Source: an uncultured delta proteobacterium
GTDB taxonomy: Bacteria; Desulfobacterota; RBG-13-43-22
DNA: 64,000 bases
Direction: 5' to 3'
Assembly: GCA_963711835.1 (NCBI GenBank)
Contig: CAVQFQ010000017.1
Coordinates: forward strand, 1 to 64,000
This document shows, piece by piece, positions 3,242 to 62,108 of the stretch; positions within the stretch are counted from its first letter, which is position 1; every line of letters starts with the position of its first letter. The position numbers were made by a program, and so were the translations under genes. Below the pieces are notes generated by a model that was not told where the DNA came from, did not search any database, and saw only the letters and a program-made list of their open reading frames with translations.

Positions 3242-3248
3242 TTGATAA

Positions 3249-3555
3249 GTATCGTTCAAAGGTTTTGGCATCGGCGCATTATTGCCTAACTGGGGACCGG
3301 GGGTCTTGATTTCAAGGCTTGTCCAAAGGGGGATCCTTCCCTCCAATCCGGCCCAGATTTGTAAAGTTGGTTTAGAGCCGGGCATTCACCCAACCGGACA
3401 AACAGCTTTGGTGAAGGCCTGCTTAAGGTATTATCGTCACCCTCCCAGCCCGGGTTCAAGGTGAGGAGTTTAGGGTGGACAACCTTGAAATCAAGACCCC
3501 CGGTCCCCTTCTATCGTGGTTCAGAAATATAATGCCACAACCTTTGAACGATACC
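3249..3555. mobile_element. MITE-like element (shell type 1) carrying an inner IR-bounded structured module
   Basis: TIRs GTATCGTTCAAAGGTTTTGGCAT (3249-3271) / ATGCCACAACCTTTGAACGATAC (3532-3554). 9-bp direct repeat AATTGATAA on both sides (3240-3248, 3556-3564). Inner IR GGGGACCGGGGGTCTTGATTTCAAGG / CCTTGAAATCAAGACCCCCGGTCCCC. Confidence 0.8.
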
Positions 3556-14272: not shown

Positions 14273-14357
14273 CAGGAGGGGTCCGAAAGACTAAGCAAAG
14301 CCATTTGAACTTTTTTCTAACGTCCTGAAGAAATGGTGCAGGGAGGTCTTATTTTTT

Positions 14358-14742
14358 GGGAGTGTCCCAAAGTTACGTGATTCTCAAACCGAAGGGGTAG
14401 CCTCTTAAAATATTAAATCACCCCAAAGGGCTTCAGGGGTCTTGATTTCAAGGTTGTCCGAAAGGGTATCCGTAGCCCCAAACTGGGATCCACTCCGCAG
14501 GAGTGGGACTGAGCATTGTTTTGGATGCGAAGAACCCGGCCCGAATTTCTAAGTTGGTTGGGAGCCGGGCATTCACCCAAAACGATAAATAGCTTTGGTG
14601 GTGGCCTGTTTCTTAACCCACCCATAAACTTCCTGCCCGGGTTCAGGCTGCCGGTGTTTTGGCGGACAATCCTTGAAATCAAGACCCCTGAAGCCCTCTA
14701 TGAATGGAGTGCTTAAAAATCACCTAACGTTGGGACAAACTC
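14358..14742. mobile_element. MITE-like element (shell type 2) with inner IR-bounded structured module
   Basis: Ends GGGAGTGTCCCAAAGTTACGTGATT / AATCACCTAACGTTGGGACAAACTC. Flanks TATTTTTT / TATTTTTA (7 of 8 match). Perfect 27-bp inner IR at 14427-14453 / 14671-14697. Confidence 0.8.
14454..14669 (+). ncRNA. Putative 6S-RNA-like structured RNA (copy 2)
   Basis: By-eye fold is a long rod with a central bubble and many G-U pairs on the + strand. Contains CCGAA...TTGGGAGCC and CCCACC...CGGGTTCA motifs. Not verified by a covariance model. Confidence 0.45.
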
Positions 14743-14809
14743 TATTTTTATGGTATAGTGGTCCTGATCTGAATTCGTTAACCCGACGGCCGGGTCACCC
14801 CCTAAAAAA

Positions 14810-18334: not shown

Positions 18335-18358
18335 AAAATTTCTTCCTTTAAAAGAAGC

Positions 18359-18690
18359 CAGTTTGTCCCAACGTTACGTGATTTTTAAGCACTCCATTCA
18401 TAGAGGACTTCAGGGGTCTTGATTTCAAGGTTGTCCGAAAGGGTATCCGTAGCCCCAATCCGGCCCGAATTCCTAAGTGGGTTGGGAGCCGGGCATTCAC
18501 CTAAGACGATAAATCGCCTTGGTGTTGGCCTGTTTCTAAATCCACCTATAAACTTCCTGCCCGGGTTCATGCTGCCGGCGTTTTGGCGGACAATCCTTGA
18601 AATCAAGACCCCTGAAGCCCTTTGGAGTGATTTAATATTTTAAGAGACACCCCCTTCGGTTTGAGAATCACGTAACTTTGGGACTATCCC
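18359..18690. mobile_element. MITE-like element (shell type 2, opposite shell orientation) with the same inner module
   Basis: Perfect 8-bp TSD AAAGAAGC (18351-18358, 18691-18698). Shell is the reverse complement of the 14358-14742 shell. Inner IR at 18404-18430 / 18595-18621. Confidence 0.85.
18431..18593 (+). ncRNA. Putative 6S-RNA-like structured RNA (copy 3)
   Basis: Homologous to 14454-14669 and 3319-3482, with pairing-preserving substitutions. Confidence 0.45.
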
Positions 18691-18696
18691 AAAGAA

Positions 18697-18785
18697 GCAG
18701 TCGGCGATCAGATAGCAGCCCTCAGCCAATTAATTGTCTTTAAAAGGGTTTCCCTGAAAGCTGATTGCTGACCGCTGAAGGCTGT
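18697..18785. repeat. Short-period TCAGC / GCTGA inverted repeat
   Basis: GTCGGCGATCAG..AGCAGCCCTCAGC vs GCTGATTGCTGACCGCTGAAGGCTG; a related piece lies near 5230. Confidence 0.55.
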
Positions 18786-43683: not shown

Positions 43684-43787
43684 TCAGCTAACCACCGGCT
43701 CATCCGCTGATTTGACGGGGGGGCCGGGAGTAAAAAGGAACTTATTCGTTTTTGGTGTTGAAGGAGTTTTTCCCTTTAAGTCGGACC

Positions 43788-51052: not shown

Positions 51053-51219
51053 GATAGGCTTTGTTGGCCTGGGCCGCCCACGATCCATTCCGCCCTGGAC
51101 TTCCCCAAACACCGCCTTTTCCCCCCCTAAAAAACGCGATATAGGCCCCAACCAGAACCCCTTTTCAGACAATCTTAAAGGAATCCAATCAATTGGCCTG
51201 GCCCGATCCCAATTAACTA
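51053..51219. repeat. ~165-bp dispersed direct repeat, copy A
   Basis: Highly similar to 52200-52364 (GATAGGCTTTGTTGG...CCCAATTAACTA). Confidence 0.85.
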
Positions 51220-51270
51220 ATTCCCAAAAAAATGCTTGACAATCGCACACAAAAATATAAACTTCTGATT

Positions 51271-51366
51271 AAGACGGGTAAATCCTGGTGTGTGCTCGGG
51301 GTGCTTCCTTCCATCGGTTGGAAAAGAGCCCCGGGATAAGAGACATATCAGGGGCCGTCTTTTTTA
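51271..51366 (+). ncRNA. Structured small RNA convergent on the DUF3800 gene
   Basis: TTGACA(51236)-16 bp-TAAACT promoter. Nested stems AAGACGG/CCGTCTT, CCTGGTGTGT/ACATATCAGG (G-U pairs on +) and TTCCA/TGGAA. Terminal T-run. Confidence 0.65.
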
Positions 51367-52199: not shown

Positions 52200-52364
52200 G
52201 ATAGGCTTTGTTGGTCTGGGCCGACCCAGATCCATTCCACCCTGGACTTCCCCAAACACCGCCTTTTCCCCCTCTAAAAACCGATATAGGCCCCAACCAA
52301 AGCCCCCTTTTCAGATAATCTAAATAGAATTCAATCAATTGGCGTGTCCCGACCCAATTAACTA
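52200..52364. repeat. ~165-bp dispersed direct repeat, copy B
   Basis: Matches 51053-51219; its end supplies the TAG stop of the upstream gene. Confidence 0.85.
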
Positions 52365-53369
52365 CATGTAAAGATATGCTCGTAAAAGCTCATTTGAATT
52401 TCTATTTTCAATACGAGGCTTAATCATTGCATACGCCTTATTCATAAAAAACTGATTAAAAAGAGACTTCACATTATTAATTTCTTTTTCGGTCATTCCT
52501 TTTGCTGTACCATATATGTCCCATTCTTCATTAATACCTTCAGGAAGACCAATTGCCTCTAAATTATCGATAGCGTACCCGAATCCTAAAAAAAATATTC
52601 TTTTGTAATTTGCGATTAAATCTTTTACCTGCTCTTTCATGCCTTGTGATCTTTCGCCGATTACTCGAATTCCTCCTGATAAGTTCTGAATTTTTTCAAA
52701 ATCAACTTCCGAACCGTATTTTGATCCACCATTAATAACATGATTATCAACCTGTCCATAAACATGAATAATTGGAAACGGCAGATATTTCTTTTGCCAA
52801 TTTAATCCGATTTTTATCAGGTCACTATTTTGGGAAAAAGCATTAAAAAAGCTTTCATATAGAAAATGTTCTAATGATCTGTCATAGTTGAAAGTGATAA
52901 AAGCGATTTTATTTTCACGAAATTTATCAATATCGTTAGGTGTATTAAAGGTCGATATCATCCTGTTGAACAATAGGTTATACCAGTCTTCATTGGAATC
53001 ATTCAGATTTTCCCTAAATTTACTTGTTTTTTCTTTGGTTAGGATAATTTGTGTAATCGCCATTTTTCCAAAGTTAGAAAATATTGGGTTCAAAGCCAAA
53101 AATTTATCAATAGATTCTATGCTGGATTTTTTAAAGGTATTTATAAATTCTGGAATCTTTTTCAAAAGTTTAACTTTTTCTTCGGCATTTATTAAAGAAT
53201 CCTGTTTTAGTAATAATTGGAAAGCCGTGAAAAAGTGTCGGACGATTTCAGACCTTAATTCTGGTCCTGTTGGGTATCCATAAGGTTTGCTGGCACCGGC
53301 TCCGAGAACAAACAAAGTTGGGGTTTCAATCATTAACTTATCCAATAAAATTTTTCGGGTTAAGCTCAC
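52362..53369 (-). CDS. SIR2-like domain protein (putative defence NADase)
   Basis: FVLGAGAS, ITFNYD, IHVYG and FLGFGY motifs; markedly AT-rich. Confidence 0.72.
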   Translation of the reverse strand: MSLTRKILLDKLMIETPTLFVLGAGASKPYGYPTGPELRSEIVRHFFTAFQLLLKQDSLINAEEKVKLLKKIPEFINTFKKSSIESIDKFLALNPIFSNFGKMAITQIILTKEKTSKFRENLNDSNEDWYNLLFNRMISTFNTPNDIDKFRENKIAFITFNYDRSLEHFLYESFFNAFSQNSDLIKIGLNWQKKYLPFPIIHVYGQVDNHVINGGSKYGSEVDFEKIQNLSGGIRVIGERSQGMKEQVKDLIANYKRIFFLGFGYAIDNLEAIGLPEGINEEWDIYGTAKGMTEKEINNVKSLFNQFFMNKAYAMIKPRIENRNSNELLRAYLYM

Positions 53370-53379
53370 CTTTTACCAT

Positions 53380-55141
53380 TTATTCTCTTTTATAAATCAT
53401 GGCTGATTTCGGAAACCCGATGGCTTCTTGCAGGGTGGCTTCGAGGAGTTGGCGGCGGGTAGTGGCGGTGGTGTTGAGCCGGGCTTCCAGTTCGTCGCAT
53501 AGGATCATCAGTTCGTCCGCCTTCGCAACGATCCGGTGTTGTTCGGCGAGGGGGGGGAGGGGAGTAATTTGATTATTCGCCATTGATGCGGTTAGTTCAA
53601 CTTGTTTGGTAGCCCCTGATGCTCTACCTTCTATCGTTCCGTATACATAATCGGAGCGAAGCCAAATGAGAACAAAACGCTCATAAACGAGAAAACAACG
53701 TATGACAGTCACATGACTATCGCAAACTAGCGGCTCAGGTGGATGATCAACACGAATCACACGACCAATGGTCCCGGTTCCAGTAGAGTTCCAAAGAAGG
53801 TCGCCGCCTTGTAGAAACCGAACTGGTTCATAGTTTTCTAAGGACTCCGACACCAAAGATTTCGCCCACTCCATGTGAAGGCCATCCCATTGAACGCATT
53901 TCTGTGAAATAACTGGACGGCCATATCCGGCTGCATATTTGGGTGATTTTCCACGTTGAATGTAAGTTGTGATATCACATAGCTTAGCCCAGTTCCAGCT
54001 TGGCGGAACAGAAAATGGGATTTCATCTTCCTTAATAGGTCTAAAATATTGCTCTTTCCTAATTTGGCCCGCTTTTGCTAAACGTCGTTTCTCCAGCTCA
54101 ATCCGCTTCAGCAACTCTGCCGCCGGCTCATCATTCGGGTCCTGCGGGACGAGTTTGCCGCGGACGGCGAGGTTGAGGATGGTCTGGCGGAGTTGGTGGA
54201 TGTGTTCGGGGCGGGTGGTGAGGCGCGGGAGGTGGTTGAAGTAGAAGCGGGCGCTCTCGTCGAAAGTGGGATGGCACCCGAGTTCCGAGTTCGTCATCGC
54301 CATTGTTCAGTCCGTGCAGGGTCGCCGCCACCAGCCGGTCGCGCCGCCTTTCGCGCTTGGCCTGCGCCGCCTCCAGTTCGTCGCACAGCGCCATCAGTTC
54401 GTCCACCTTCGCCACGATCCGGTGTTGTTCGGCGAGGGGTGGGAGGGGGAATTGATTATTCGCCATTGATGCGGTTAGTTCAACTTGTTTGGTAGCCCCT
54501 GATGCTCTACCTTCTATCGTTCCGTCATACATAATCGGAGCGAAGCCAAATGAGAACAAAACGCTCATAAACGAGAAAACAACGTATGACAGTCACATGA
54601 CTATCGCAAACTAGCGGCTCAGGTGGATGATCAACACGAATCACACGACCAATGGTCCCGGTTCCAGTAGAGTTCCAAAGAAGGTCGCCGCCTTGTAGAA
54701 ACCGAACTGGTTCATAGTTTTCTAAGGACTCCGACACCAAAGATTTCGCCCACTCCATGTGAAGGCCATCCCATTGAACGCATTTCTGTGAAATAACTGG
54801 ACGGCCATATCCGGCTGCAATTTGGGTGATTTTCCACGTTGAATGTAAGTTGTGATATCACATAGCTTAGCCCAGTTCCAGCTTGGCGGAACAGAAAATG
54901 GGATTTCATCTTCCTTCAATAGGTCTAAAATATTGCTCTTTCCTAATTTGGCCCGCTCTTTGTAAACGTCGTTTCTCCAGCTCAATCCGCTTCAGCAACT
55001 CCCCCGCCGGCTCATCTTCGGGTCCTGCTCCACCAGCTTCCCTCGCACGGCCAGATCCAGAATGAACCGCCGCAGGCGCGGCACGGCGTCGGGTGCTTCG
55101 CTGATCTGGTCAAAGTGCTTGAGGAGCCAATCAGGGTTCAT
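53380..55141 (-). CDS. hsdS: Type I RM specificity subunit (frameshifted; two near-identical TRDs)
   Basis: ILDLAVRGKL...QDP, EIPFSVP.SW and PLPPLAEQHRIVAK conserved regions, each repeated twice. Confidence 0.88.
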
Positions 55142-56055
55142 GGGGCGATTCTCTTGCTCAGGATTTCCTGCCAGATGGGGCGTGACTGCCAGTCGGTCCG
55201 GGAAGCCCATGTTGGGGATAAGTTTTGGATCAAGACGCCCTATATGATCCATCAATCTTAGCGGCCAGCGACTATCCGGCTCAATGATCCGAAGCATGTG
55301 GATAAGCAGGACCAGCGAGTTATAGAGACGTCGGTCCTGTTCCGGATGAAAGTTCGGGATCAGCACGGCCGGCCTTGATGTGGGCAATGCCACGGTTACA
55401 GTAAAGCGGCGGTTCCACAGTCGTGAATGGTGGGCGCAGAGGTTGCGCAGATACACGCTGTGTTCCAGCAGAGACTTCAGGACATCGATGGATAGCTGGT
55501 AAGTCTGGGCGATGCGTTTTTTATCTCTATCATGCCGTATGTTCGTATAGAAGCGACTCAAGAGCCCAAAGGACATAACCTCACAGACCGCCCAGATGGG
55601 CGGACGGTTCATCCCGTATTTGTTCCGGTAACGGGTAACGAAAACCTCGTCGCTGCGACTCAGTTCCTCATCAAGGATGGAAAGCTGTTTGGCATGTGGC
55701 GGATAGTTCCGGAAATTGGACGGGTCTTCATAGGCCTGGGGGCCGTAGGCATGACCGAGCACATAGGTCCAGCGCGCTCGGACTGAGATTTCGACGCGTT
55801 TACAGGCTTCATTAACCAGTTGGCGAAGCCCGCGATCAAAACAGTAAAGGGTCCAAAGGGAGTCAAAGGTAGTACCGGGGAGATATCTATCGGGATTGGT
55901 CTTTTCTACGAAGGGAAAGCGGTAAGCCGACAGGCGATAATAGTTGTGGTGTTCAAGGATATGGAGGGCCTTGCCTTCGTCCTAACGCCCATACCCCGTT
56001 TCTTAAGGATCTCAAGCTGTTCGGCGTATGTTTTGGGGGGTTTATCAGCGTTCAT
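55138..56055 (-). CDS. Abi_2 / AbiD-AbiF family HEPN protein (frameshifted)
   Basis: KPPKTYAEQLEILKKRGM, NYYRLSAY, PPIWAVCEVMSFG, RNLCAHHSRLWNR; ATGA overlap with hsdS. Confidence 0.82.
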
Positions 56056-56065
56056 TCCCCCTCCA

Positions 56066-56125
56066 GAAAAAAGTAACCCGCCAATTTGAGCATCGTTGAG
56101 AGGCTTGGCGGGTATTGTTGACTCA
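56066..56125 (-). ncRNA. abiF-like RNA hairpin upstream of the Abi gene
   Basis: ACCCGCCAA-20 nt loop-TTGGCGGGT then a U-run; TTGACA at 56156-56151 upstream. Confidence 0.55.
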
Positions 56126-56191
56126 TATTTTGCCATTACCATCCCGGAAATGTCAAGAAAATATTTTGTTAGTGACAAAGGGTCGGTCCCA

Positions 56192-57634
56192 TTATCGCAG
56201 CAGCGCCTCCTCCAGAATGGCCTTCAGCTGGTCCCGGAGTTTGGCCGTCTCCCTCTCGCTTTCCTCCAGCTTGGCCAGCAGTTCGGCGGGATCGCCGTGG
56301 TCTTCCTCGACGGTATGGGGGTTCTTGAAATCGAGGTTGTAGTTGCGGGCCTTGATCTCGATCGATGATCGACCTTCCAGGCGACTTCATTTTCTTCTCG
56401 CTTCTCCCACCAGTCGATGCAGGGCTTCAGGTGCTCGAAGCGGATCGGCCTGGTCATCGAATAGGCCTTTTGGCCCTCGGGGACGCGGTGCTCGTAGTAC
56501 CAGACTTCCTTGGTCTGCGTGCCCTTCTCGAAGAAAAGCAGATTGGTGCCGATGGAGGCGTAGGGTTTGAAGACGCTGTTGGGCAGGCGAACGATGGTGT
56601 GGAGGTTGCACTCCTCCAGCAGGTGCTCCTTCAGCCGGGTCTTGACCCCTTCGCCAAACAGGGTGCCGTCGGGCAGGACCACGGCGGCGCGGCCGGCGGG
56701 TTTGAGCAGGCGCACGATGAGGGCCAGAAAGAGGTCGGCGGTCTCCCGGGTCTGGAAGTGCTTCGGAAAGTTGGTCTCGATGCCGTCTTCCTCGCGGCCG
56801 CCGAAGGGCGGATTGGTGAGGACGATGTCCACCCGGTCGGACTGGCCGTAGCTGATGTAGGGCCGGGCCAGGGTGTTGTCGTGGCGGACGAAGGAGGGGT
56901 CGTCGATGCCGTGGAGCAGCATATTGGTGACGCAGAGCATGTGCGGGAGCTGCTTCTTCTCGGTGGCCCGCAGGCCCTTCTGCATCTTCTGTTCGTCAGC
57001 CGGGGTCTTCACGTAGCGCTCGCGCATGTGGCGGATGGCGCAGGTGAGGAAGCCGCCGGTGCCGCAGGCCGGGTCGAAGAGGATCTCGCCGGGCTTGGGA
57101 TCGATGCGGTCGGCCATGAAGGCGGTGACGGCGCGGGGGGTGTAGTACTCACCGGCGTTGCCGGCGCTCTGGAGGTCGTTCAGGATCTGCTCGTAGATGT
57201 CGCCGAAGTGCTGGCGTTCGGCAAGGTTGTTGAAGTCGATGGCGTTGATCTTATTGATCACCTGGCGCATGAGCTGGCCGGACTTCATGTAGTTGTAGGC
57301 GTCCTCGAAGACATCGCGCACCACGCGGCGCCGGCCGTCTCTGACCGGCGCCGGGCAGTTCTTTGAGCGTGGGGAAAAGCTCGTCGTTGATGAAGGCCAT
57401 CAGCGCGTCGCCGGTCAGGCCTTCAGGATTGGCGGCCCAGGCGCGCCACTGGAGCTTCTCCGGGATGGGCGAGCGGTAGCCCTTCTGCATCAGTTCCAAT
57501 TCCTGGTCCTGGTCGTCGATGATCTTGAGGAAAAACATCCAGCAGAGCTGGGAGATGCGCTGGGCGTCGCCATCGACGCCGACATCCTGGCGCATGATGT
57601 CCTGAATGGATTTGACGGTGGTTCGTACATTCAT
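56192..57634 (-). CDS. hsdM: Type I RM methyltransferase (frameshifted)
   Basis: GEYYTPR, DPACGTGGFL, TNPPFGG. Confidence 0.92.
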
Positions 57635-57641
57635 AGTGGTA

Positions 57642-60104
57642 TCAGGCTGCCTTTTCGTATAGAGCGGACTGGAGTTCGTGGACGGCTTGCTCAAAGCCTC
57701 GCGTCCGCCGAAGGTCTTGAGAAGTTCAATCGGAGTACCCATGGTGTCAAAGGGGGCGATCTTCAGGATACGCGGATCGTCGAGGTCGGTGACGCCTTCG
57801 TCCTGGTATTTCTGGAGCAGGGCTTCGAGCACGGCCCGGGCCTGCTCGCCGTACTTGGTGAAGACATCGCGCTTGCGGACATTCTCCGCCCGCTCGCGCC
57901 GGGTGAGCGGCGGCTGGTCGAAGGCCACGTGGCAGATCAGGTCGAAGGGGTCGAGGTCCTTACCCACTTCCTCGGCCAGCGGATCGAGCAGCAGGCCTTC
58001 GTTCTCCAGTTCTTCGATGATGGCCTGCTTGCGCTCGGCTCCGTTCCAGCGTTTGAGGAACTCGTCGAGGCTGGCGAAGCATTTGCGGAGCGTCTTCTTC
58101 GAGTAGTCGCGCAGGCTTTCGGTGACCAGTTTTCCGTTTTCGTCGAGGTATTCGATACGCTCGGCCAGGATGCTGACCGGTTTGCCGCGAATGTAGTATT
58201 TCGCGAGGCGGCTCCTTGGCCGTCGTGGATGTTGATATCGGGCGGCTCGGGATCGACGATCACCTCTTCATCTTCGCCGGGTTTCGGCGGAATGGGCTCT
58301 TCCCGGTCGTCCGTCGGCGGCACATCGTCCGGGGGCGTAACCGGATCGTCCTCTCCCGGTTCGTAGATCTGCACCGGCTCGCCGTCGAAATCGGGGTCAG
58401 CGAAGTGGTTGGTGGCCTTACGGAAGTCGATCAGGGTGAAGTAGTACTTCTTGGTGTCCTCGTGGACGCGTGTGCCACGGCCCATGATCTGCTTGAACTC
58501 GGTCATCGATCCCACTTCGCGGTCGAGGACGATGAGGCGGCAGGTCTGGGCGTCGACACCCGTGGAGAGCAGGCGCGAGGTGGTGACGATGACCGGATAC
58601 TTCGCTTCCGGGTCGATGAAGTTACCGATCTGGGCGCAGCCTTCGGCGTCATCGCCGGTGATACGCATGACGTAGCGGTCGTTCTGCTGCACCAGGTCCG
58701 GGTTTTCGTTGATGATGGCCTGCCGCATCCGCGCGGCGTGTTCGGTATCCACACAGAAGACGATGGTTTTCTGGAAGCGGTCGCCGCTTTCTTTGAGGAA
58801 TTCGGTCACCTTCCGGGCGACACGCTTGGTGCGCTCGTCGATGACCAGATTACGGTCGAAGTCTTTCTGGTTGTAGATGCGGTCCTCGATCTCGTAGCCG
58901 TACTTGTCGGTTTCGCCCTGCTCGGGGCGGTAGCCCTCCACATCGACGTCGAGATGGACCTTGACCACCTTGTAGGGCGCGAGGAAGCCGTCGCGGATGC
59001 CTTCCTTCAGCGAGTAGCTGTACACGGGTTTGCCGAAGTAGTGGATATTGGAGACGTATTCCGTCTCCTTCGGCGTGGCGGTGAGGCCGATCTGGGTGGC
59101 GGCGGAGAAGTAGTCCAGGATCTCCCGCCAGACGGAATCCTCTGCCGCGCTGCCCCGGTGACATTCATCGATGACGATGAGGTCGAAAAAGTCGCGGCGA
59201 GAGCTCCCGGTAGAGCTTCTGGCGTTCCTCGGGGCCGGTGATGGCCTGGTAGAGTGCAAGGTAGATCTCATAGGAGGTGTCGATGCGCCGATGCTTCTTG
59301 TCTATCGCTGTCGGCAGTTGCACTTCGGCGCCATCGTCGCGCTCGATGGTCTTCGAGGAGGTAGAGAGCTTCGCCATGGCGGCGCCGAAGGGGCGGAAGT
59401 CGTTCACCATCGTCTGGTCGACGAGGACATTCCGGTCGGCAAGGAAGAGGATGCGTTTCTTGCGACCTGCCTTCCACAGGCGCCAGATGATCTGGAAAGC
59501 GGTGTAGGTCTTGCCGGTGCCGGTGGCCATAACGAGGAGGATCCGGTCCTGCCCCTTGGCAATGGCTTCGATGGCCTTGTTGATGGCGATGCGCTGATAG
59601 TAACGCGGCTCCTTGCCACTGCTGTCCTCGAAGTAGTTCTGGAGGAAGACTTCCTCTTGCTCCGGGGCCAGGCCTTTCCAGCCACGGTATTTCGACCAAA
59701 GGTCTTCGGGTGTCGGGAAGGCGTCGAGGGACAGCTCGGTTTCGGTCTGACCGCTCTGGCCGGTGCGGTCGTGAAAAAGGAACGCGTCACCGTTTGATGA
59801 GAAGACGAAGGGAATGTCGAGGGTCGCGGCATACTCCGAGAGCCTGCTGCATGCCGTCGCCGACGGCGTAGTTGTTGTCTTTGGCCTCGATGAGGGCGAT
59901 GGGGATGTTCGGCTTGTAGTAGAGAATGTAGTCGGCGCGCTTGGCCTTGCCGCGGGTGACCAGCCGGCCGCGGACGATGATCCGGCCTTTGGTGAACGAG
60001 ACCTCCTCGCGAATTTGCGACAGGACATCCCAGCCCGCCTGCTTGACAGCGGGCGTGATGAACTTGGTGCAGATGTCGCGTTCGCTGAGGTCTTTCTTGT
60101 TCAT
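57642..60104 (-). CDS. hsdR: Type I RM restriction subunit, EcoEI/EcoAI-like (several frameshifts)
   Basis: [45 protein letters not shown]. Confidence 0.92.
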
Positions 60105-60276
60105 GGTTTTAGGGATTAAAAAGAAAAAAGCCTTGTATGAGCTTTCCCATACGAACGTTATTGTCGACGATGAACAATTCACTGCCGGTCAGGCTGGTGC
60201 GTTTGGGCATAGGCGGTCCTTAATTATCTAAAAATCTTCAAACTTTCACTTGCCTTCGGGTTAACAATTTATCCTT

Positions 60277-60894
60277 TTATCGCGATTCCCTTGCCTGCAA
60301 TCGGTTCAAGAGGCTAACTATTTCCCGGTAGCATTTATCAAATGACCGGGCTCGACGTGCCGCCTGAAGGTCAAACACCTTAGTGAGAGCGGGCTGATCC
60401 AAGGTTTCCGTATAGGGTCGGTTTCGAGGCATCCGCGCACTTAGCCACTCCTTGGCCCCACGGATTCCCTCCGGATTGCTCTCAGTCATCAGGTCCGGGG
60501 ACAACCCCCGGGCACCCTTAAGCGAATCGGCAGCAGCGATAAACCAGGCTTCATACTCCTGGTTGGCCAGCACAACTGAAACGGGGTAATCCGGCCGGGC
60601 TTTGAGTACCCGTCGGTATAAGGCCGGGCCGTCAAACTTGGGACAACACCCTTCCCAATCGCAATCCAGCAAAACAAAAATCCCGCCTTTCCCTTCCAAT
60701 TTCCGGCTAGCCAGATCCACTGTCCGTTCCAATTCACCCTGTTTTATTAAACGATTTGCAGGAACCCGCAGTATGGGGTCTATTTTAACAATTGCCTGTG
60801 GGGCAACCTCTGCGGTGACCCGTTGGATAAGCACCGGTAGGGCCTCAACCTCTCCGTGGCCTTCCACTATGGCCGCAATCCGGATGAGGCTCAT
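60277..60894 (-). CDS. DUF4276 family (TOPRIM-like) protein
   Basis: IVEGHGE, LLDCD, EYEAWF, RSFDK; overlaps the ATPase stop. Confidence 0.78.
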   Translation of the reverse strand: MSLIRIAAIVEGHGEVEALPVLIQRVTAEVAPQAIVKIDPILRVPANRLIKQGELERTVDLASRKLEGKGGIFVLLDCDWEGCCPKFDGPALYRRVLKARPDYPVSVVLANQEYEAWFIAAADSLKGARGLSPDLMTESNPEGIRGAKEWLSARMPRNRPYTETLDQPALTKVFDLQAARRARSFDKCYREIVSLLNRLQARESR

Positions 60895-62108
60895 TTTGGA
60901 AATTCCCCAAACAATTCCATTTGAGAGGCTGGGATTCCTTCCACTTTTTTAGTGTCCGGTATCAATTGGTTGAGGCGTAAAAGCTCTCCTGCCGTATAAA
61001 GCCTATCACGGATGGCGCTTCGTCCAGCTTCTTCCAATGGACCGATTTTGGTTTCCCCATTTTCGCTGATGACGGCCAGAATCCAATCATCGCGGACGGA
61101 TTTATCATCCAGAAGGTCGGGACTGTGGCTGGTAACTGCAACTTGAACCATTTTGGACGCAGCCTGAAGGGCATCGCGGAGAATTCCCGCAGCTCCGGGA
61201 TGGACCGCAACTTCGGGTTCTTCGATCCCCACAAAGGGCACACGGCGCCCCCCCCCATTAACGGCCTGGTACACCGCAGTTAGAACACCCAGGGCACGAA
61301 GGGTCCCATCGGACATGTTTTCTGCTGGAAAACGCCAAGGAGCTTTGTTTTTACCCACCACCTGACGAAACTCCAACGTTTCTTTCTTCGCCACATGCTT
61401 GACCTCTACTTTTTGAACCCCTGGAACCACTCTGGAAAGAAAATCCATGATTTGTTGATAGGTTTTTGGGCGTTCCTTGGCCATAATGTTTAGGACGCTG
61501 GCCAGGTTTCCACCGTCGCGACGCAGTAGTTCTCCCGGGTCTGGGGGCTGCAATTCTCTGATTTCATCAGGATTTAAATTATAAAAACCCATTCTGGAGA
61601 GACGATCATACAGAAGTCGGAAGGGAGGTAATCCGGCCGCAACCACTAAATACAACCGGTCGGTCTCCGCCGGCGGCATCACCTTCTCACTTGAGTCCAT
61701 TAGTTTACCACCTTCAATTTTATAAAAACTTTGCTCTCCCACTCCAACTCCATATATATGACACTCTTCCTCCTGGACTTCAAAGCCCCCCTTTGGCAGG
61801 GCGCCCACCCTAAAAGCGAAATAGCCCTCATTCTCTCCCGGAAGATTGAAATCCAAGCGAATTCCAAAGTGCGTTGGATGCCCGGAAGACCGACGACGAA
61901 CTTCTCCAATCCCACCCCGTTCTCGTAGTGCGTGCTCCAAACTGGTGTTGAGTGACTCAGCCAGAAGTCGCAAGGCATCCAGAAAATTGCTTTTCCCTGC
62001 CCCATTGGGCCCCACGAGGAAATTAAGCGTTCCGAGATCCACGGAACAGGCAGCAATGCTTTTATAGTTTCTCAAAACAACACGCCGCAAGAAAACTGAA
62101 TTATTCAT
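60891..62108 (-). CDS. AAA_21 / ABC-type ATPase
   Basis: NYKSI, GPNGAGKSN, MSDGTLR, IEEPE, TSHSP. Confidence 0.88.
   Translation of the reverse strand: MNNSVFLRRVVLRNYKSIAACSVDLGTLNFLVGPNGAGKSNFLDALRLLAESLNTSLEHALRERGGIGEVRRRSSGHPTHFGIRLDFNLPGENEGYFAFRVGALPKGGFEVQEEECHIYGVGVGEQSFYKIEGGKLMDSSEKVMPPAETDRLYLVVAAGLPPFRLLYDRLSRMGFYNLNPDEIRELQPPDPGELLRRDGGNLASVLNIMAKERPKTYQQIMDFLSRVVPGVQKVEVKHVAKKETLEFRQVVGKNKAPWRFPAENMSDGTLRALGVLTAVYQAVNGGGRRVPFVGIEEPEVAVHPGAAGILRDALQAASKMVQVAVTSHSPDLLDDKSVRDDWILAVISENGETKIGPLEEAGRSAIRDRLYTAGELLRLNQLIPDTKKVEGIPASQMELFGEFPK

Follow-up and report, generated by a model that had tools for sequence, protein, structure and literature searches.

A gene-less MITE family in an uncultured deltaproteobacterium whose repeat-bounded core is probably inverted rarely and passively

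In this study, we analysed a 64,000-nucleotide stretch of DNA (the window) and the genome containing it, and found a family of gene-less MITEs of ~330 bp whose ~164-bp core occurs in both orientations relative to the surrounding shell. Flipping of the core is probably a rare, passive event, caused by a homology-driven slip between the inner inverted repeats (IRs) of 26–30 bp, with no dedicated invertase taking part. Homology-driven inversion is favoured because flips occur in all shell families and an in-place flip was seen at one locus. Core inversion in this family is thus probably an ordinary mutation rather than an on/off switch.

Copies 2 and 3 of the window (14358–14742 and 18359–18690) belong to a common MITE family and have the core reversed between 27-bp inner IRs. 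The features of these copies and of a third element, copy 1, are listed below.

3248–3555, plus strand: copy 1, a homologous type Y core in an S2 shell, with a perfect 8-bp target site duplication (TSD)
3292–3317 and 3483–3508: inner IR of copy 1
14291–14356, plus strand: remnant of an S3 shell (left arm and inner IR), the site into which copy 2 inserted
14350–14357 and 14743–14750: TSD of copy 2, 7/8 match
14358–14742, plus strand: copy 2, whole element, S1 shell with the minority (flipped) core orientation
14358–14426: armA of copy 2
14427–14453, plus strand: inner IR of copy 2, left arm, pairing with 14671–14697 at 27/27 positions
14454–14670, plus strand: core of copy 2, 217 bp, bearing a 53-bp insertion near 14480–14534
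14671–14697: inner IR of copy 2, right arm
14698–14742: armB of copy 2
18351–18358, no strand: left TSD of copy 3, 8 bp, same letters as 18691–18698
18359–18403, minus strand: armB of copy 3 (reverse complement), including the outer terminal IR, 43/45 against armB of copy 2
18404–18430, plus strand: inner IR of copy 3, left arm, 27 bp, 26/27 complementary to 18595–18621
18431–18594, plus strand: core of copy 3, 164 bp, an imperfect hairpin in the majority orientation with respect to the shell
18595–18621, minus strand: inner IR of copy 3, right arm
18622–18690, minus strand: armA of copy 3 (reverse complement), including the outer terminal IR, 63/69 against armA of copy 2
18691–18698, no strand: right TSD of copy 3, 8 bp

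The preliminary description had read copy 2 as armA-IR-core(+)-IR-armB and copy 3 as rc(armB)-IR-core(+)-IR-rc(armA), and the alignments agree, with the arms matching in inverted sense (63/69 and 43/45) and the cores in direct sense. When the 53-bp insertion of copy 2 was set aside, the cores were identical at 151/164 positions in direct and at 47/164 in inverted alignment. This insertion was found in family copies of either orientation. The element of copy 3 is bounded on both sides by the 8-bp TSD AAAGAAGC, and its outer IR (18365–18388/18661–18684) spans 24 nt at 88% identity. As had been described, no TSD flanks the inner IR: no direct repeat lies there, and the 8-bp TSD belongs to the whole element. 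The folding of copy 3 gave z = −11. No ORF of at least 100 aa lies within copy 2 or copy 3, and one 128-aa antisense ORF merely enters arm B. Copy 2 lies beside a response regulator gene and a penicillin-binding protein gene, and copy 3 beside a lipocalin-like/CrtC gene and a Yip1-domain gene. As an Rfam search of copies 2 and 3 matched no family, their identity with a known RNA was rejected.

The genome containing the window (G000) is a binned assembly of 3.9 Mb and 89% completeness. It holds 106 filled elements with a homologous core in four unrelated shells (S1–S4), together with 24 coreless shells with both arms, and both counts include a few copies on duplicated contigs. Contigs C27, C1 and C24 duplicate parts of C17, C21 and C5, respectively, at 89–99% identity, a strain-like redundancy. 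The elements measure ~300–395 bp (49 S1 copies have both arms), and in all four shells the ~164-bp core lies within an inner repeat of 26–30 bp. Shell S1, that of copies 2 and 3, makes an 8-bp TSD and has element ends that are conserved among copies; shell S2, that of copy 1, also makes an 8-bp TSD and has ISH6-like ends. Shell S3 is without a terminal repeat, with CTA duplicated at one empty site, and shell S4 is flanked by TA, presumably following the IS630-type target rule. A TSD matching at 7/8 positions or better was found in 29 of 47 S1 copies, compared with 1.7 in shuffles (maximum 8), and in 23 of 32 S2 copies, compared with 1.5 (maximum 6).

Mobility of the elements was seen as presence or absence between populations. 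The loci L064 and L048 are filled in related populations and empty with a single target copy in G000, and one contig of run X1 omits exactly 393 bp at copy 2, that is, the element and one TSD. Copies 2 and 3 are therefore MITEs, as judged from the terminal IRs, the TSD, the short non-coding multicopy nature and the exact presence/absence polymorphism. The S1–S4 elements constitute a new MITE family, while MITEs themselves and the inversion mechanism are already known. At locus L057, the S3 element corresponding to G000 C15:41637–41947, which is without a terminal repeat, is missing in a related population, and CTA is apparently duplicated or shared there.

The parent transposase was searched for in several ways. 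Profile searches of G000 with PF00872, PF12762 and PF01610 gave no match, and no S1–S4 ends were present in the inspected flanks of two IS110 copies and a DUF772 gene. As judged by eye from ORF starts, no pair of S1–S4 ends in G000 encloses a transposase-like gene. No autonomous partner with S1–S4 ends was found in viral contigs or in plasmids, nor among the matches listed for 401 genomes of the phylum. Two single end-like matches in other genomes were not IS ends on inspection. The core was present in 6 of 20 other genomes of the same bacterial family and in 0 of 20 other members of the phylum. Altogether it was found in at least six shell types, among at least 60 loci (two of those 60 being chance matches), and the core-bearing loci outside G000 come from uncultured deltaproteobacteria/Thermodesulfobacteriota. 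Literature searches, whose coverage of subscription papers was poor, returned nothing relevant on the S1–S4 family or on a shared MITE passenger.

The orientation of the core was tabulated for the genomic copies, as the preliminary description had proposed, and both forms occurred in each of the four shells. The ratios of minority to majority orientation were 10:35 in S1 (p 0.0002), 3:24 in S2 (p 0.00005), 8:11 in S3 and 2:13 in S4 (p 0.007). Copy 3 has the majority form, as do 35 of 45 S1 copies, and copy 2 has the flipped minority form; the opposite core orientations described for one shell thus extend across the genome. Flips were not confined to any structural subtype, whether defined by the 53-bp insertion or by a long or short arm A. 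Both orientations were also seen in other genomes, and among independent metagenome contigs, read by eye, 8 of 23 readable S1 copies had the minority form.

Of the 106 filled copies, 15 failed the splitting step and were dropped, and the S1 trees omit three more rows (two duplicates and one truncated copy). In a tree built from 36 S1 copies after all cores had been turned to one direction, the nine flipped copies corresponded to nine changes (shuffled mean 8.1), on a weak topology in which 21 of 33 inner branches are open and the starred branches are compatible with one origin. The sister of copy 3 on this tree, C13:49049, is oppositely oriented. The shell-only S1 tree required seven changes and the core-only tree six.

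We consider it extremely unlikely that the minority orientation is a chimeric product of assembly between near-identical repeat copies. Such an artefact would be favoured by the large number of hairpin-like repeats and by the duplicated, strain-like contigs of the binned G000 assembly. However, the copies differ from one another by ~11%, the TSDs still match across flipped copies, and the same flip was assembled independently, and for these reasons misassembly is improbable: the element at C16:1589 shows the same minority orientation and the same inner switch point in an independent assembly (L037). The share of minority S1 copies in the independent metagenome contigs and the presence of both orientations in other genomes also argue against it.

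One locus was found flipped in place. L058 and L066 share their flanks (93.7% identity over 1.9 kb) and an identically truncated arm B and carry opposite cores; the comparison is of two short-read contigs, one of which stops within the core. The remnant of G000 at this site (C15:35703) reads as L058. In contigs of relatives, no opposite-strand joint was found at copy 3; at copy 2 there was one (run X4, one contig), for which assignment to this locus is impossible. A 449-bp skip over copy 3 in run X7 was left out, as just 21 letters lie on its short side. Run X7 is an RNA run, and its contigs gave no demonstration of transcription.

The switch point had been placed within the 27-bp IR, since the single-base asymmetry just inside the IR stays with the core. 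This holds for copies 2 and 3, in which the extra base moves with the core, and does not hold throughout the family, where 3 of 13 switches lie further in. Among the 13 minority copies of S1 and S2, the switch was located in the IR in eight and within the terminal homology of the core in three, while two were unreadable. Accordingly, the extra base inside the repeat went with the core in eight copies and with the shell in three (C16:1589, C25:34039 and C17:650508). In the three informative flipped copies, an A/G marker in the repeat (ninth base) stayed with the shell, and in none was it reversed. The inner repeat sequence differs among the four shell families, all of which flip, and S1 and S2 have the inner 18 bp of the repeat in common.

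These data bear on the idea of a trans-acting site-specific invertase that flips the core fast and reversibly and thereby toggles transcription; we regard this idea as very improbable. The anatomy is indeed inverton-like, with IRs of 26–30 bp around a segment of ~164 bp and both orientations seen, and the available text of PMC11892184 gives invertons IRs of 10–40 nt. Moreover, 8 of 11 readable switches lie inside the repeat, inward of its ninth base, and elsewhere in G000, which is 89% complete, there are seven tyrosine-recombinase matches (PF00589) and two IS110 transposases (PF02371). Against these points, three switches lie outside the repeat, so that the crossover site is not fixed, and four distinct repeat sequences all flip. 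The orientation bias in S1, S2 and S4 is strong, and the orientation was constant at all seven loci shared with ~95% identical relatives and at all three loci on duplicated contigs. Serine invertase profiles (PF00239 and PF07508) had no match in the G000 assembly at its 89% completeness. The statement that the window encodes no invertase was borne out, as PF00589, PF00239, PF07508 and PF02371 had no match there. The preliminary description had left open a site-specific or a homologous inversion between the inner repeats. The homologous branch is sustained by the flips in all shells and the one in-place flip, while the varying switch point, the differing IR sequences, the seven of seven fixed loci and a flipped share that tracks age speak against the site-specific branch.

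The proposed toggling of sense and antisense transcription from armA found no support. A search for promoters of the sigma-70 type over copy 3 gave 0 sites compared with 0.6 expected, and the core direction was unrelated to the flanking genes (26 same and 25 opposite, from the 51 of 103 copies with co-directional neighbours and with crude ORF calls). A programmed phase-variable switch is unlikely. The core flip would be a slow mutational by-product and hence without importance as a switch, and inverton calls made from sequence only will flag MITEs with flipped cores such as these.

The two arms of the inner repeat were compared within copies by counting identical changes on both arms, with 2000 shuffles and restricted to rows whose register agreed with that of the majority repeat. 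Such changes numbered 13 in S1 (36 rows), compared with 3.1 in shuffles (maximum 9), 17 in S2 (24 rows), compared with 4.3 (maximum 11), and 8 in S3 (8 rows), compared with 2.1 (maximum 7). S4 showed no real arm co-mutation (1 vs 0.1 shuffled, maximum 1). Wobble pairs in the IR did not clearly favour one strand in S1 (17 vs 11), and in S2 the counts were 11 vs 4. The outer tips were swapped or symmetrised in some copies (e.g., C26:21377, C4:55735 and C13:26947), and the repeat was extended into the core in several. The junctions of the 24 coreless shells lie at microhomologies inside the repeats and vary; two of these shells are filled in relatives. Coreless shells were rejected as pre-insertion targets because of this variation and because parts of the repeat are lost at the junctions. 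In many S1 and S3 copies, short GC-rich palindromes repeatedly substitute parts of the core (e.g., C4:278668 and C4:371121).

Deletion of hairpins by slippage is a known process. The available text of PMC8604942 and PMC5941160 describes the signature of template switching as homogenised arms together with an inverted spacer. In the present family, the arms are homogenised in S1–S3 beyond all shuffles, and in-place inversion is recurrent (L058/L066 and the four shells). We therefore propose the following course for the homology-driven inversion. A transposase acting in trans would copy the whole element, with the core in whatever orientation it has. After insertion, pairing of the repeats could allow template switching by the replicating strand across the fork, or the repeats could recombine over the short homology. 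Either event would even out the arms, sometimes invert the spacer and sometimes delete it, and each core flip would be inherited thereafter. Template switching and short-repeat recombination leave similar traces and are indistinguishable from these data.

The rate of inversion was approached through comparisons of different age. Seven of 34 metagenome loci have a filled G000 orthologue, and the orientation was the same in all seven (relatives of ~95% identity); one of them, C16:1589, is the flipped copy with the unusual inner switch point. Elements on the duplicated strain-like contigs agreed in 3 of 3 cases. Among families of increasing pairwise divergence, with duplicates removed and six copies skipped, the flipped share was 0/8 at 0.029, 2/15 at 0.070, 2/18 at 0.097, 1/8 at 0.104, 10/39 at 0.122 and 8/17 at 0.192 (Spearman 0.83, p 0.04, six points). 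The youngest of these is an S1-like family in another genome (G015), whose partial copies likewise keep one orientation. A two-state clock fit gave 4.4 flips per element per substitution per site (95% range 2.6–7.1), a rough value from six families, one of them from another genome, under the assumption of star-like bursts. In log-likelihood, the clock model exceeded a constant share by 4.1 units and a 50:50 share by 21.7. Counter to the clock, the flipped S1 copies were not more diverged than the others (0.070 vs 0.077). In an S2-like family of another genome, 3 of 7 copies were flipped at 0.11 divergence and these three were mutually close, so flips may be inherited during copying and the three possibly stem from one event. 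Core inversion is thus likely to be rare and slow, on the scale of mutation. According to the available text of PMC11892184, flipping by invertases outpaces nucleotide change. The roughly 100 copies in age-graded families offer a natural read-out of the inversion rate for a spacer of 160–226 bp between repeats of 26–30 bp.

The occurrence of one core in many shells raises another explanation, in which the IR-bounded core is a mobile passenger, or is swapped by gene conversion via the shared repeat, and its orientation reflects the polarity of insertion rather than in-place inversion. We hold this to be unlikely. It would fit the occurrence of the same core in different genera and in six or more unrelated shells, and of an S1-type core in 9 of 27 S2 shells, the S1 and S2 repeats being alike in their inner 18 bp. 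It would also fit the 12 Y1/HUH transposase matches in G000, several of which have terminal repeats starting GGGG[AT]C, as does the inner repeat. However, the coreless shells showed varied deletion-type junctions and none was a clean pre-insertion hairpin, and there is no duplication around the core. The young family has one orientation in all eight complete copies and also in the partial copies inspected, and L058 and L066 carry opposite cores at one shared locus. Furthermore, of the 8 positions of the TIRtron motif GGGGWSAS, as given in the available part of PMC3733652, the inner repeat fits only 6, and the 12 Y1/DUF772 genes examined all lie outside the catalogued elements.

A stronger form of this idea would make the repeat-bounded core of ~215 bp a hitch-hiker that has colonised at least six MITE shells, themselves descended from unrelated insertion-sequence families, and is nicked at its repeats by a host HUH (TIRYT-like) transposase, causing both transfer and flips; this, too, seems unlikely. 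If true, the core would be a parasite of MITEs. A core that is mobile by itself, or that aids the transposition of any shell, would add a new tier of parasitism to those seen in mobile elements. The homology-driven slip that we prefer does not account for the presence of one core in at least six unrelated shells, whose ends and target rules differ. Nesting, deletion and conversion could together provide a passive route for the core between shells. Shared insertion sites and the nesting of S1 in S3 suggest that insertion hot spots are shared and that shells could be exchanged by this route. S1 elements were observed inserted into S3 elements, including copy 2 in the S3 remnant at 14291–14356, and different shell families occupy the same sites in related populations (G000 C22:75415 vs L043/L061 and C17:445139 vs L054; also C16:105746).

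The core itself is conserved, with a mean column identity of 76% among 19 cores from different shells and genomes. In these 19 cores, invariant GC-rich motifs ~30 bp apart pair without covariation, and the covariation lies mostly in the IR. When the 19 cores were folded singly as RNA, the plus strand was more stable in 15, while the minus strand was better in the consensus fold. Most of the Y1/HUH genes of G000 (~290–335 aa) have short GGGG[AT]C terminal IRs and are TIRtron-like; they include C12:141175, C17:498282, C17:165459 and C8:125123, with C5:297795, C10:57870, C17:331826 and others in the same set. At G000 C10:53686–55873, a small palindrome within the core of an S2 element holds a 2.2-kb insertion sequence with two ORFs (190 and 415 aa), terminal repeats and an apparent 9-bp duplication.

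Several known systems resemble the present family in part. Among bacterial MITEs, the Correia repeat enclosed elements (CREE) of Neisseria are the closest by description: they are short, non-coding, multicopy and hairpin-forming, with terminal repeats, a TSD and a conserved core. Inversion of CREE has reportedly been described by Elbeyioglu et al. The present elements differ in that a second, internal repeat pair bounds the flipping part and in that one core is common to shells with different target rules (8-bp, TA and CTA). Inversion by template switching, as far as the available text of PMC8604942 and PMC5941160 describes it, is alike in the arms being identical within a copy, the inverted spacer, the recurrent independent flips and the lack of a dedicated enzyme. 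The yeast cases there have spacers of 2–5 bp, whereas the present spacers are 160–226 bp with arms of 26–30 bp, and here the inversions are spread over ~100 MITE copies, which permits the rough rate estimate. Invertons, as presented in the available text of PMC11892184, share the segment between short inverted repeats and the two orientations; in contrast, the present elements have no linked invertase, a variable switch point, no promoter found and an orientation that is stable between related populations.

The ends of S2 (copy 1) start GGTA-CGT like ISDesp5 of the ISH6 family (p-MULT 2), and the 8-bp AT-rich TSD of S2 resembles AANATNTT, both as given in the available part of PMC3942029. No ISH6 transposase was located. 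S1 (copies 2 and 3) was rejected as an ISH6 derivative, since its ends are unlike ISDesp5 and six S1-like end motifs were unmatched in the available part of table S1 of PMC3942029. TIRtrons, the TIR dimers of TIRYT HUH transposases in the available part of PMC3733652, are alike in that the inner repeat starts GGGG[AT]C and in that TIRYT-like genes with such repeats are present in G000, but no TIRYT gene lies between the inner repeats.

Other features of the window were recorded. On the minus strand, 52362–62108 is a Type I restriction-modification region with an N6 methylase, ResIII pieces and an AAA_21/DUF4276 pair, in which hsdS and hsdR are apparently split over several ORFs. The hsdS-like ORFs contain a near-identical direct repeat (53483–55016) spaced by ~884 bp, and the region also holds an Abi_2 gene and an abiF RNA match (56076–56112). 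A stretch of ~150 bp is duplicated at 51053–51364 and 52200–52355 (spacing ~1146), and a DUF3800-V RNA match in this area is barely over its gathering score. Finally, a 64-bp inverted repeat (43990–44053/47761–47824, 84%) encloses 3.7 kb of genes, including a TPP-enzyme ORF, and a repeat near it, at 43780 and 47757, resembles an S4 end.
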